From an uncultured Candidatus Saccharibacteria bacterium (lineage in GTDB: Bacteria; Patescibacteriota; Saccharimonadia; Saccharimonadales; Saccharimonadaceae), in contig CALEJV010000003.1 of the NCBI GenBank assembly GCA_937898545.1, positions 253,193 through 317,192 on the forward strand: a stretch of DNA of 64,000 bases, given 5' to 3'. Within the stretch, counting starts at the first letter, position 1, and each line of letters opens with the position of its first letter. This document shows, piece after piece, positions 5,456-64,000 of this stretch. Both the position numbers and the translations under genes were made by a program. The notes under the pieces were generated by a model. That model did no database searches, was not told the DNA's origin, and saw only the letters and a program-made list of their open reading frames with translations.

Positions 5456-6766
5456 TTACATACGGTCACTAACGTGTGCCAGTACGCGGGTTGCTGCCTG
5501 GGCTCCGCTTACTGCAGCACCCTCGAGGTGGGGCGCTTTCATATAGTCTCCGGCAAGAAAGACACCTGATGGGAGTCCATCTTCAAATCGTGCAGCAGTT
5601 GTTCGTGTAACGCTGCCGACATCAAATACTGGAATTGCAGTATCCCATCGCACGACGTCTACCACCTCACCACGACGCGCAGCGTCAGCTACGGGTGGCA
5701 AGTTCATTCTAGTCAGCTGGTTGACAAGTTCTCGCTGGAGATGCTGCTGTTCTAGGCTACCTTGCGCCCGCCAATAGAATCGAATATATGCATGCTTACT
5801 CTTTGCCTGAATTACCTTAATTGCGACAAGTGGTGTGACATACTCACTTGAAATGACGATCGTTCGATTGCCAACGCCAAGGTCATCAGAAACGGATGTT
5901 TTAATTATGCCGACTGTGACTGAACTATAGTCAATTGCTTTCAGACTTTTGCTGCAATGCAGACCGCCGTCTGTCAGGATACGAATTGCATTTCGTGCAG
6001 GTGATGCGACAACAACAGATTTAGCGCTAAATGTACCTTGTGATGTATCGACCCGATAGAGGTGGTGGCTTTCAGCACGGACTGCATCAACCTGTGCATT
6101 TAATACATGAGGTACCTTATCGCCGATTGCGGATGGCAGACTACTCATTCCGAAAGGTAGACGATAGAAATGCCGGTCTTCCATGACGCCCTTAATAATT
6201 GGAGGTACCAATCCGCGTGATGTATGTGCACAATCCCAGAAGAATAGTGCGCGCACCATTGGTTCGAGCACATTTTGGTAGGCCTCTTTCCCAAACGCCT
6301 TTTCTCCCCATGTTACAACGGTTTCATTATCAAATCGTTTTAATTCGCGCGTAATAGCTGGTGTTGTCAGCCGCTTCGCATCAAAGAGCATAGAAACGAC
6401 TCCGCGTAGTGCGCGTAACTTGCCAGCGCGAGATAACGACGGCGAGGCTTTGAGTGCGCTCAACGGCCAAATTGGGCCAAGCGGCTTCGTAGGACGATAG
6501 AGCCATGTCTCTTGGCTGTCCTTCTGAGAGGAAGCATCCATACCGCAATCTTTGACGAGTTTGTGGGCAGTCTCATAAAAACCAGCAAGAAATGATGCAC
6601 CGGTTTCGATAGTGACATCTTCATCATAGAAAGACCGTATGCGTCCGCCAAGACGGTCATTCTTTTCGAGTACTTTGACGTGTAACCCACTATCTGTGAG
6701 ATGTGCTGCGCAGGTTAATCCTGCCATGCCTCCGCCAATGATGATGCAGTCGTAGGGTGTGTTCAT
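5456..6766 (-). CDS. FAD-dependent oxidoreductase (amine oxidase / protoporphyrinogen oxidase-like)
   Basis: N-terminal Rossmann IIIGGGMAGL...VLEKNDRLGGR, ETGASF, and C-terminal FLAGDY...LEGAAVSG. Confidence 0.85.
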   Translation of the reverse strand: MNTPYDCIIIGGGMAGLTCAAHLTDSGLHVKVLEKNDRLGGRIRSFYDEDVTIETGASFLAGFYETAHKLVKDCGMDASSQKDSQETWLYRPTKPLGPIWPLSALKASPSLSRAGKLRALRGVVSMLFDAKRLTTPAITRELKRFDNETVVTWGEKAFGKEAYQNVLEPMVRALFFWDCAHTSRGLVPPIIKGVMEDRHFYRLPFGMSSLPSAIGDKVPHVLNAQVDAVRAESHHLYRVDTSQGTFSAKSVVVASPARNAIRILTDGGLHCSKSLKAIDYSSVTVGIIKTSVSDDLGVGNRTIVISSEYVTPLVAIKVIQAKSKHAYIRFYWRAQGSLEQQHLQRELVNQLTRMNLPPVADAARRGEVVDVVRWDTAIPVFDVGSVTRTTAARFEDGLPSGVFLAGDYMKAPHLEGAAVSGAQAATRVLAHVSDRM

Positions 6767-6835
6767 ATATTTATGATATCACTAAGTTTAAATAAGTTAG
6801 TGTAGTATCAGCTATATGTGCGATCAACACACTAA

Positions 6836-7807
6836 CTACTGATACTTCGGCATCTCTACCGTCACTACTTCGCCTTTGCTGAGATCGCGGCATTTGTCGC
6901 CTTCGTAGACTTGCCGTAAGTCGACTTTCTTGGCGTTGCGGAGCTGGACTTTATAGACATCACATGTGAGCATATCGTTTTGGCGGATCTGGAAGAATAC
7001 CCAGCGCCCATCGCTTGATTGATAAAACAACGCTGTCCCTTGCGAATTAAAGAGGTGCGACTCGGGTTGTACACCACCCAGCGGTATCTCTGCTAAGCGA
7101 TAGCCTGCAAGTTTACTCTCGCGCACCGTCATCATGCCGACAATGCCGACGTTATAACTCGAACTTGCAGCAGGCGAGTAGGCATTGTAGAGAGGAGCTT
7201 GCTGCTTGGCGAGGTCTTTGTAATCGGCAGCATCAAGGCATTTAAACTCAACGAAGCGAGTTTCCTTGTTTTTCGGGTCATTTGGGTCAAGTGGGGTATT
7301 GCTAATCTGGCACGTTACGTCGCCATTGCTACGCGTAAAGTCTGCGAGGTACGGGCCGTCTTTATCGCCATCTTGCACGACATAGCGCGTGAATTGATCA
7401 TAGTCGAGCATGTGCTCTAGAGCGGTAACGTTGCGCTTGGCCTCAGCCTTGGGCAGGGTAGCGGCAGCACTCTTAGTTTTGCTTGGGTCGGTAGCAATAG
7501 AATAAAAGCGAGAACCTTCGGCCTTGACCGGTGTTGACAGTGATGACTTAACGGCTTCTGTGCCCTTAAAGTACTTCTTGGCACGCTCGAGCGTCTTGGC
7601 GGCGGTGAGCTGCTCCCGTGGGCCAGTTTTTGCCTCGGTGTGCTGTTCGGTGTTCTTGACTTTGTGTGGCCGAGTTGCGATATAAATAATCCCTGCCGCA
7701 ATAGCAACAACCGCCAAACCAGCCAAAGCAAAGCGGATGGCCAACCCACGCGGTGTTAGGCGTGAGCGTCGATATTGAGGTGAGGAGGATGATCCACTGA
7801 ATAGCAT
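6836..7807 (-). CDS. Membrane-anchored extracellular hypothetical protein
   Basis: Basic N-terminus, one hydrophobic helix (FALAGLAVVAIAAGIIYIA), then a soluble domain with 4 Cys. Start moved to the ATG at 7807 because TATAAT lies 6 nt upstream. Confidence 0.75.
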   Translation of the reverse strand: MLFSGSSSSPQYRRSRLTPRGLAIRFALAGLAVVAIAAGIIYIATRPHKVKNTEQHTEAKTGPREQLTAAKTLERAKKYFKGTEAVKSSLSTPVKAEGSRFYSIATDPSKTKSAAATLPKAEAKRNVTALEHMLDYDQFTRYVVQDGDKDGPYLADFTRSNGDVTCQISNTPLDPNDPKNKETRFVEFKCLDAADYKDLAKQQAPLYNAYSPAASSSYNVGIVGMMTVRESKLAGYRLAEIPLGGVQPESHLFNSQGTALFYQSSDGRWVFFQIRQNDMLTCDVYKVQLRNAKKVDLRQVYEGDKCRDLSKGEVVTVEMPKYQ

Positions 7808-7885
7808 AGTGTTATTATACACTGCCAGCTAGGTTGGCAGCAATGGCTCTTGCCTAAACGCAAGGTACTTCGTATAATGCAAAGC

Positions 7886-8410
7886 ATGAGCGCTATGAAA
7901 AATCGGTTAATGCAGAAAAAACACGCTGGCTATACTGTGGTAGAGTTGCTGGTTGTGATCGTTATTATTGCCATCCTTGCTACATTGACACTCGTCTCGT
8001 ACCAACGTATCCAAGCCGGTGCACAGGGGCGAACCCGCGTGGCCGACCTCACAGCAATGCGCCAAGCGCTTGATCGCTACTATACCAAAAATGGTACATA
8101 CCCGGTTGCTCAGACTGCTGGTAGTACCACCCCCACCTACCAGCGTCGCGATAGTGCCACATTTTTGCGCCAATTAGTGCCGACCTACATTACCACGCTT
8201 CCCAGCGTCACCCAGGGTAGTACCACTGATGCAACTAGCAACACCTACCTATATGTCACCAATGCTCAGCAAACCGAATATAAGCTGCTCTATGTCAACA
8301 CAAGCGGCTTACCACCAGGTGAGTATGATGCTGTGCCTCAAGCAATGCGCACCACCGCGCCAGACCGCTACGGGGTATGGTCAAAAAACGGCGAACGGCT
8401 CCCTGGCTAG
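7886..8410 (+). CDS. Type IV pilin / type II secretion pseudopilin (GspG-like)
   Basis: Class III signal peptide KKHAG|YTVVELLVVIVIIAILATL with Glu+5, followed by R..DL..M..AL..YY...GTYP. TATAAT lies 7 nt upstream. Confidence 0.9.
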   Translation: MSAMKNRLMQKKHAGYTVVELLVVIVIIAILATLTLVSYQRIQAGAQGRTRVADLTAMRQALDRYYTKNGTYPVAQTAGSTTPTYQRRDSATFLRQLVPTYITTLPSVTQGSTTDATSNTYLYVTNAQQTEYKLLYVNTSGLPPGEYDAVPQAMRTTAPDRYGVWSKNGERLPG

Positions 8411-62933: not shown

Positions 62934-63001
62934 TGGCTTTATATCGCGCTTATAAAAAAGCGATTCTTCATGATTCAGACATTGAGAAAGGAAATACAAA
63001 A

Positions 63002-63460
63002 ATGAGCGCATTCATGATACAAATGCAAGTTATCTATACAGCTCTTATGGCTGGGATGATGCTTATGTATACTATTACTTTAGGACGCTATTTTGATTAT
63101 ATTTTAAAACACAAGATACCTGGCGCATCTCAAAATTGGGCACTGTTTCATAATAATACTCGAGTGCAGATCTACCACACAGCTGTATTGGTTGGCCACG
63201 CAATGTTGTCGATAATTTCTCTCGCTACCAACTATACGAGAGGGCCGGCTCCACTCGTGGTTGCAGCGGCTGTTCCATTTCTCATGCTTACCACTCATAT
63301 GGTAACTGGCTTTGCTAAGGCGGAATTTTTTGTCAATGGTGCGCAGCGATTGGATGATGAGAAGACAGTAAAAACATATCTTGCATGGAATATGCCACTC
63401 CATATCACATACACTCTCCTCTATGCTGTATCGGCCGCTCTTTTGCTTACATTGTTATAG
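63002..63460 (+). CDS. 4-TM membrane protein, possibly DUF1772-like
   Basis: AT-rich gene, SD GAAAGGA, four hydrophobic segments and a W.WN-like motif near the C-terminus. The family call is tentative. Confidence 0.55.
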   Translation: MSAFMIQMQVIYTALMAGMMLMYTITLGRYFDYILKHKIPGASQNWALFHNNTRVQIYHTAVLVGHAMLSIISLATNYTRGPAPLVVAAAVPFLMLTTHMVTGFAKAEFFVNGAQRLDDEKTVKTYLAWNMPLHITYTLLYAVSAALLLTLL

Positions 63461-63545
63461 GTCTGAATCGCTAAGGATCACGAGGAAATGAGAGAATATT
63501 TATCTTAGTTGTACATAGCGGGGTAATGAGGCTATAATAAGTTTT

Positions 63546-64000
63546 ATGCGACGCTCTACTCGAAGAAAGATCATTATCGTTGGGGTTCCCTTATGACGTA
63601 TAGTGCTATTACGTACGGTCTTCCCTATCTGCTTTTGGATGCACCGTTCGCACGGGTTAATGCAACTGAGACGCTCAAGGAGCGCTTTTCTCGCGAGTAT
63701 ACGCAATCGCTCGATGTCAAATATAGCAAGGGGTCGCCTCAACTCAGCCGCGAAAGCCCAAGTGGCACAGTACTTGGCTACGTCACAGACACGAAGACAC
63801 GCCAGAAGCTGCTCCAAGCTCAGCCCTTTGCCGATTGCTCTGGTGGCTGCTCGTCGTGGCAGCCGTATAGTGAGTATGGCAAAACATCACCACTGCTTGG
63901 TATTGAGCAAAATCTACCGCCCGACTCACACAACATTCTTCGTACGGCAACAGGAGGGGGAGGTCAGTGTGTTGCTCGCTACCATCCAGATTCGCACGGT
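63546..64000 (+). CDS. Paralogue of 40599-41138, with an apparent 1-nt frameshift near 63590; truncated by the window end
   Basis: ATG 63546 gives MRRSTRRKIIIVGVPL*. The frame from 63593 gives MTYSAITYGLPYLLL...VTDTKTRQKLLQAQPFADCSGGCSSW...QCVARY, open to 64000. Confidence 0.7.

Follow-up and report, generated by a model that had tools for sequence, protein, structure and literature searches.

We analysed a window of 64,000 nucleotides (nt) of DNA from an uncultured Candidatus Saccharibacteria bacterium, which spans positions 253193-317192 of contig C3 in a genome of 1.05 Mb, 8 contigs and approximately 52% guanine plus cytosine (GC). Air metagenomes make up the DNA sequencing runs that contain 98-99% of the words sampled from the window, and the closest public genomes are metagenome-assembled genomes (MAGs) labelled Candidatus Saccharibacteria or Nanosynbacter. 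The subject of this report is a -10 promoter box that lies directly before the start codon of many genes in this stretch. An earlier note on the window listed 18 such starts and read them as a signature of messenger RNAs (mRNAs) that lack a 5′ leader. We re-read the 45 nt upstream of each start and recomputed the hexamer, the spacer, the TGn extension, the best -35 element, the length of the open reading frame (ORF) and any in-frame upstream start. Every one of the 18 hexamers and spacers agrees exactly with the earlier note. The sites are given below with hexamer, spacer, start codon and gene; gene identities are from Pfam, and protein lengths are in amino acids (aa).

6764..6778, minus strand: TATCAT, 6 nt, ATG of an amine-oxidase-type flavoprotein gene (5456-6766); TGn present, first start of its ORF, weaker hexamer
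7805..7819, minus strand: TATAAT, 6 nt, ATG of a gene for a 323-aa protein (6836-7807); -35 element TTGCTG at 18 nt, divergent from 7886
7873..7888, plus strand: TATAAT, 7 nt, ATG of a gene for a prepilin-type (N_methyl) protein (7886-8410); -35 element TTGCCT at 17 nt
11299..11314, plus strand: TATACT, 7 nt, ATG of a solute-binding protein gene (11312-12130)
15745..15759, plus strand: TGaTATGAT, 6 nt, ATG of a gene for a 474-aa protein (15757-17181); first start of its ORF
26716..26730, plus strand: TGcTATACT, 6 nt, ATG of trpS (26728-27762)
29765..29779, plus strand: TGgTATACT, 6 nt, ATG of a TPR protein gene (29777-30670); promoter within the 3′ end of the upstream gene
31251..31266, plus strand: TATACT, 7 nt, ATG of a gene for a 245-aa protein (31264-32001); first start of its ORF
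35556..35570, minus strand: TGaTATACT, 6 nt, ATG of a gene for a 248-aa protein (34812-35558); ambiguous site
35808..35823, plus strand: TGcTATAAT, 7 nt, ATG of a P-loop kinase-like protein gene (35821-36483)
37269..37283, plus strand: TATACT, 6 nt, GTG of a histidine kinase gene (37281-38915); the only GTG site of the 18
40587..40601, plus strand: TACAAT, 6 nt, ATG of a gene for a 179-aa protein (40599-41138); perfect TTGACA 18 nt upstream
51996..52011, plus strand: TATAAT, 7 nt, ATG of dnaX (52009-53517)
56841..56857, plus strand: TATAAT, 8 nt, ATG of a PMT_2 glycosyltransferase gene (56855-58315); -35 element TTGAGC at 17 nt
59103..59118, minus strand: TGcTACACT, 7 nt, ATG of an rRNA adenine dimethylase gene (58371-59105); divergent from 59203
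59190..59205, plus strand: TATACT, 7 nt, ATG of a phosphoketolase-like protein gene (59203-61548); in-frame ATG 24 codons upstream
61600..61616, plus strand: TGgTATACT, 8 nt, ATG of an RNA uracil methyltransferase gene (61614-62933); contig read-through from upstream
63533..63548, plus strand: TATAAT, 7 nt, ATG that opens 16 codons here; a 172-aa membrane protein in approximately 30 relatives

At nine of the 18 sites no start codon lies earlier in the ORF. The other nine have an in-frame ATG, GTG or TTG upstream that the longest-ORF rule would favor, and the proposal that the listed starts correct many ORF calls is therefore plausible, except that 63546 opens no long ORF in this genome. The TGn extension, said to be present at many of the starts, stands in exact register at 8 of the 18, a count that we enter as a caveat. 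Good -35 elements are found at several sites, such as those at 40599 and 7886. The trpS box is the sole promoter-like site in the spacer between two divergent genes, and the ORF longer than that from 35821, which would begin at TTG 35659, would run into a tRNA at 35624-35695. At 29777 an in-frame ATG lies 6 codons upstream. The start at 37281 is less certain because GTG shows no excess at this spacing in the genome as a whole.

Genome-wide signal and promoter character

If the boxes in the window are functional, their spacing from start codons should recur throughout the genome, which is the check that the earlier note proposed. We scored 888 ORFs genome-wide by a simple dicodon measure and defined a strong hexamer as TA[TC][AG][AC]T and a loose hexamer as TANNNT. 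Strong hexamers are indeed in excess at spacers of 6-8 nt over control spacings. Specifically, a strong hexamer lies 6-8 nt before an early candidate start in 196 of the 888 ORFs (174 with ATG), compared with a mean of approximately 53 ORFs (27 with ATG) in twelve control spacer windows, an excess of about 3.7-fold that rises to about 6-fold when only ATG starts are counted. By spacer, the ORF counts are 100 at 6 nt, 50 at 7 nt and 24 at 8 nt, and an additional excess of approximately 37 ORFs is found at spacers of 9-11 nt. The whole excess over control spacings is made up of ATG starts, with none for GTG. The genes in excess number approximately 140-180, or 17-21% of ORFs, which is about one in five. 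By our estimate, approximately 150-190 of some 890 ORFs would use the layout.

The same peak emerges when gene models are set aside. When every TANNNT was taken with spacers of 0-40 nt, the ATG of an open frame of 100 codons or more followed a strong hexamer 116 times at spacer 6 and 66 times at spacer 7, against approximately 10-25 times at other spacers. Loose hexamers are found at 6-8 nt in 309 of the 888 ORFs versus approximately 200 at any control spacing, a background high enough that a single weak site may be due to chance. Approximately 85% of the strong ATG sites should be real.

To characterize the motif, we placed the hexamers of the 174 ATG sites in register and inspected only positions outside the selection. 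T and G occupy the two fixed positions of TGn at 59% and 70% of sites, the base directly 3′ of the hexamer is A at 80%, the base directly 5′ is C or G, and position -23 is T at 55%. TTG lies 16-18 nt upstream in 31 of the 174 sites, compared with 5-10 (about 7) in shifted windows. The motif is an extended -10 promoter of the sigma-70 type with a weak -35 element, and it carries the features by which that class is recognized, namely TG one base 5′ of the hexamer and a weak or dispensable -35.

Distances between extended -10 motifs and the next called start follow a bimodal distribution. Among 586 such motifs, 96 lie at 6-8 nt, 9 at 9-11 nt and 7 at 12-20 nt, and a far mode holds 43 at 21-40 nt and another 43 at 41-80 nt. 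Such a gap at 12-20 nt would be expected if transcripts either have no leader or have one long enough to accommodate a Shine-Dalgarno (SD) sequence. Approximately 45% of the recognizable extended -10 promoters within 150 nt of a gene start use the layout in which the box abuts an ATG. Gene order points in the same direction. Leaderless candidates have an opposite-strand gene upstream in 45% of cases, versus 25% for SD genes, and a same-strand upstream gene lies within 20 nt for 6% of the former versus 40% of the latter, as counted in this approximate gene set. Leaderless candidates therefore mostly head transcription units.

A second class of genes is initiated in the classical manner. Clear SD sequences had been described in the window for fusA, tuf, rpsJ, rplK and rplL, all of which we confirm, and nusG is likewise SD-led. 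The 3′ end of the 16S rRNA, GGATTACCTCCTTTCT, carries CCTCCT, and thus the anti-SD is intact; genes lacking an abutting box show a GGAG/GAGG/AGGA peak centered at -11. Leaderless candidates have no SD 4-mer from -25 to -8, and the few at -7 to -3 are too near the ATG for an SD role. Among the 18 starts, 35558 has an SD-like GGAG/AAGGAG nearby. The genome also encodes IF3 (contig C7:15236-15487) and an S1 protein with four S1 domains in an open frame of 362 aa (C7:38603-39586); the shortness of this S1 matches a report on ribosomes of the Candidate Phyla Radiation (CPR) (PMC9297842).

As a separate observation, SD-led genes often have a consensus TATAAT just 16-35 nt upstream (for example at window positions 13560-13590, 19670-19703 and 56264-56309), and their leaders must therefore be very short.

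Conservation and spread of the layout

Close relatives (38 loci, 85-92% protein identity) have upstream regions nearly identical to those of the window and therefore carry little information on constraint; at 61614, same-genus relatives have a TATACT or TATAAT box with a spacer of 7-8 nt. A more demanding comparison used one genome per family from approximately 60 families of the order, which gave 29-30 loci per gene including the window's own. For trpS, a TATAAT- or TATACT-type box is found by eye 6-11 nt before the same ATG in approximately 28 of 30 loci, and a strict rule (TANNNT at 5-9 nt) is satisfied by 22 of 30 loci at 54-64% protein identity. For dnaX (64-71% identity), a strong -10 box lies 5-11 nt, mostly 8-10 nt, before the same ATG in 20 of 29 loci. 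All 20 of these box-abutting loci start with ATG, whereas 5 of the 29 loci are SD-led, with a distal promoter in four and a GTG start in three. The control gene fusA (77-85% identity) has a -10 box near its ATG in 0 of 30 loci and an SD in 24 of 30. It was used after a synteny control based on the gene 3′ of trpS was dropped, that neighbor not being conserved.

Homology begins at residue 1 for trpS, and at residue 1-2 for trpS and dnaX, in approximately 29 families, while the DNA upstream of these genes is unrelated among families. Because the layout is kept despite unrelated upstream DNA, it is a conserved property of particular genes. The existence of two initiation classes, one with an abutting -10 box and one led by an SD, is thus supported by positional statistics, promoter flanks, operon position, and the conservation of trpS and dnaX against fusA.

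Two side observations concern dnaX. Its start codon appears to track the mode of initiation, with GTG at most SD-leader loci and ATG at box-abutting ones. An A-rich ACAACAG box also lies at a fixed distance of approximately 20-22 nt upstream of the dnaX -10 box in approximately 18 of 29 families; it is reversed in a few families and absent from the window's own genus. This box may be a regulator site, and the region upstream of dnaX gave no match in Rfam.

Site 63546 offers a further view of conservation. In approximately 30 relatives, one extra base joins this ATG to the ORF of a 172-aa membrane protein, which begins MRRSTRRKIIIVGVLL(M/I)TYSAITYGL..., and several relatives have Ile at the place of the internal Met 63593. 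In one group of relatives all sequence 5′ of the box has been replaced, and the box, spacer and ATG are kept. The 1-nt deletion (63546-63596) is shared by contigs from two runs of the source study, and the long frame restarts in this genome at ATG 63593. Judged from the relatives, 63546 is an ancestral, predicted leaderless start whose gene has been frameshifted here. Its protein is either lost or produced from 63593 with a 47-nt leader.

To survey the phylum, TGNTATAMT-N(6,7)-ATG was counted against the same pattern with N(15,16) in 201 Patescibacteria genomes drawn evenly from approximately 100 families. The genome studied here has 69 matches versus 10 (a reversed-pattern control gives 7) and ranks second of the 201. 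Twelve genomes of the same genus have 40-72 versus 3-12, its family has 31-72 at the short spacing, and eight other families of the order have 11-32 versus 0-4. In total, the 201 genomes hold 2722 versus 530 matches, a 5-fold difference, with medians of 11 versus 2. An excess of at least 10 is found in 92 of the genomes and no excess in 46. By these pattern counts, the signature is phylum-wide yet patchy.

Interpretation and rival explanations

We consider it likely from these sequence patterns that most of the genes in question yield leaderless or near-leaderless mRNAs. Specifically, sigma-70-type extended -10 promoters with the consensus TGnTATA(A/C)T followed by A, and with a weak -35, would direct RNA polymerase to start on the A of the ATG or within 1-3 bases of it. 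The resulting mRNAs would have neither a 5′ leader nor an SD. Leaderless mRNAs in general present a 5′-terminal AUG that is bound by the ribosome together with initiator tRNA and IF2, and we propose that such an SD-independent route would serve these transcripts. The remaining genes would rely on classical SD pairing with the CCUCCU tail of the 16S rRNA.

Sequencing runs guessed to be RNA bear, as weak and mixed evidence, on where transcription begins. Their contigs are assembled without strand information, are of low depth and derive from relatives at 90-95% identity, and they were compared with five window stretches that cover 14 of the sites. At 7807 (minus strand), the end of a contig of run X21 coincides exactly with the A of the ATG if 10 diverged letters, the last of which read ...CAT, are included. 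At 7886, an X22 contig starts at 7885, and at 59105 (minus strand) an X22 alignment ends exactly at the ATG with 4 unaligned letters beyond. All three genes are divergent and have no same-strand gene upstream, and therefore read-through cannot supply their transcripts. Approximately 0.26 ends within 1 nt of the 14 sites would be expected by chance among the approximately 138 listed X21 and X22 ends over 22 kb, which gives a rough Poisson P of approximately 0.002.

Other contigs, and several further facts, weigh against the leaderless reading. At 26728, X12 and X23 contigs begin 70 and 20 nt upstream of the ATG, X23 and X24 contigs reach upstream of the ATG at 31264, and the region 35558-35821 is spanned by contigs of the X12, X23 and X24 type. 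The genes at 26728, 31264 and 35558 have no protein-coding gene upstream on their own strand, and the spacer upstream of trpS holds no other consensus promoter that would account for contigs starting before the ATG. Additional upstream starts exist if the X12, X23 and X24 libraries are clean RNA. The depth of X12 is nearly flat and DNA-like, with Nextera adapter remnants at fragment ends, and X23 and X24 cross intergenic regions; the upstream coverage reflects either DNA carry-over or genuine upstream transcription. The ambiguity at 35558 has several sources, in that a same-strand tRNA lies 65 nt upstream, AAGGAG precedes the box, and the end of an X12 fragment falls 6 nt upstream. This gene (34812-35558, minus strand) may be expressed both leaderlessly and by read-through from the tRNA.

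Contigs also cross 6766 (X21, from the same-strand gene upstream), 11312 (where the region upstream is likewise under RNA-type contigs), 29777 (X22), 56855 (from a gene 33 nt upstream) and 61614, and therefore these five genes are co-transcribed with upstream neighbors, either additionally or instead. Spacers of 9-11 nt are frequent in other families and imply a leader of 1-4 nt rather than none. The share of individual strong-hexamer sites attributable to chance is approximately 15-28% (27/174 to 53/196), and the gene calls come from a home-made ORF scorer that perhaps misses 10-15% of genes. Finally, the ATG at 63546 opens in this genome a frame of only 16 codons, MRRSTRRKIIIVGVPL followed by a stop, and nothing longer.

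This last site supports the reading in which the promoters are real but translation starts at a downstream codon on a short leader, or in which the first ATG belongs to a small upstream ORF, given that the long ORF restarts at 63593. The relatives of 63546, however, read through from the first ATG, several of them with Ile in place of the internal Met. Elsewhere, ATGs that lie in frame with long ORFs are enriched 5- to 7-fold specifically at spacers 6-8, half of the 18 window sites are the first start of their ORF, and the trpS and dnaX homology extends to the first or second residue across some 29 families. We regard a downstream start as very unlikely to be the general explanation. An A/T-rich motif could instead serve longer mRNAs as a non-SD site for ribosome binding or standby, as in group B of the GeneMarkS-2 classification. 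The position occupied by the motif is that of a ribosome-binding site, and RNA-type contigs cross many of the sites. Yet a group B motif is expected before all genes, including internal ones, whereas the present motif is depleted at internal positions, tight coupling being found for 6% of the genes that carry it versus 40% of SD genes. The TGn extension and the TTG at 16-18 nt are hallmarks of recognition by RNA polymerase, the same motif recurs 21-80 nt upstream of SD-led genes beyond the gap at 12-20 nt, the intact anti-SD is in use, and three contig ends fall on the predicted +1. A ribosome-binding role is thus highly improbable. Equally, A/T-rich hexamers and start codons will sometimes meet by chance in intergenic DNA, as the roughly 200 ORFs with a loose hexamer at any control spacing attest. 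Coincidence would produce neither the sharp peak at spacers 6-8, with its 3.7-fold and 6-fold excesses, nor the difference between 69 matches and the 7 of the reversed pattern, nor a layout kept across families when the surrounding sequence is not, and its probability as an overall account is close to nil.

The origin of leaderless or near-leaderless initiation is a separate question. The earlier note had seen in it an echo of the leaderless-rich Actinobacteria that serve as hosts; on such a view it would be either an adaptation to them or an acquisition from them. Cultured members of the group do live on Actinobacteria, and the window's family is the strongest in the phylum sample (31-72 versus a median of 11). 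This idea does not survive the survey, in which most sampled Patescibacteria are enriched, because a 5-fold enrichment (2722 versus 530) over 201 genomes and some 100 families, 92 of the genomes with an excess of at least 10, points to a lineage trait rather than to mimicry of a host. The gene-by-gene conservation over approximately 29 families of the order argues likewise, the MAG derives from an air metagenome, and nothing in the analysis, which took in no host promoters, ties the layout of TGn-extended -10 box, ATG only and 52% GC to those of hosts. We therefore judge a host origin unlikely. On balance we lean, with some reserve, toward the view that initiation with no leader or with one of 1-4 nt from a TGn-extended -10 box is an old inherited mode of Saccharimonadales and many other Patescibacteria (CPR), which may have been kept gene by gene, as in trpS and dnaX, over order-level divergence.

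Known systems and significance

In the classification of GeneMarkS-2 (Lomsadze et al., 2018; PMC6028130), group C genomes carry a Pribnow box 6-8 nt from the start of operon-first genes and an SD before others. Between 25% and 50% of their operons are predicted to be leaderless, and they are mainly Actinobacteria and Deinococcus-Thermus (PMC6028130). The genome examined here resembles group C in spacing, in its two classes and in its bias toward operon heads, as judged from our own counts rather than from GeneMarkS-2 itself. Three features of that group were found, namely a box at approximately 6-8 nt, a preference for operon-first genes, and an SD that is absent there and present elsewhere. 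The features of group B, a motif before all genes and no use of the SD, were not.

Leaderless transcriptomes have been described by experiment in Mycobacterium tuberculosis and M. smegmatis (Cortes et al., 2013; PMC3898074; Shell et al., 2015; PMC4633059). As in mycobacteria, a TANNNT -10 box is the dominant promoter element here and many transcripts would run from the start codon; mycobacteria also have leaderless small ORFs. Unlike mycobacteria, the present genome shows an excess of ATG only, a clear TGn extension and a size of 1 Mb at 52% GC, and its starts are predicted from sequence. Those of mycobacteria were reportedly mapped by experiment, and GTG starts are said to be used there as well.

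In Deinococcus deserti, 47-60% of mRNAs are leaderless according to the abstract of de Groot et al. (2014; PMC4007540). The -10 box abuts the start there too, with AUG or GUG as the codon. The fraction in that species is higher than here, rests on differential RNA sequencing and proteogenomics, and concerns an unrelated phylum.

The mechanism is thus known from other bacteria, and we found no report of it for the Saccharibacteria phylum. A search of full-text literature, with the genome tables of PMC6028130 outside its reach, returned no paper on leaderless transcripts, use of the SD or mapping of start sites in Saccharibacteria, TM7 or Patescibacteria, mentions in reference lists aside. If the inherited mode proposed above is correct, then the CPR would join Actinobacteria and Deinococcus-Thermus as a third large group of bacteria with at least one-fifth of genes bypassing the SD route, and many gene starts in MAGs called by longest-ORF or SD-based tools would be wrong.

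The practical consequences begin with annotation. Gene starts in Saccharibacteria and the CPR are nearly all called by machine, and the longest-ORF rule would add false N-terminal residues at half of the 18 window sites. Such false N-termini affect predictions of signal peptides, pilin leaders and domains. Saccharibacteria have recently become genetically tractable (PMC10633639), and a layout that comprises a minimal promoter and an ATG would be useful for expression constructs in laboratory co-cultures. From an evolutionary standpoint, a reduced genome that would make wide use of leaderless initiation, yet retains an intact anti-SD, IF3 and a four-domain S1, bears on the flexibility of bacterial initiation.

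One minor observation concerns the neighborhood of fusA. The approximately 680 nt between this gene and the solute-binding protein gene (window positions 10631-11298) hold no confidently scored ORF, yet lie under RNA-type contigs.

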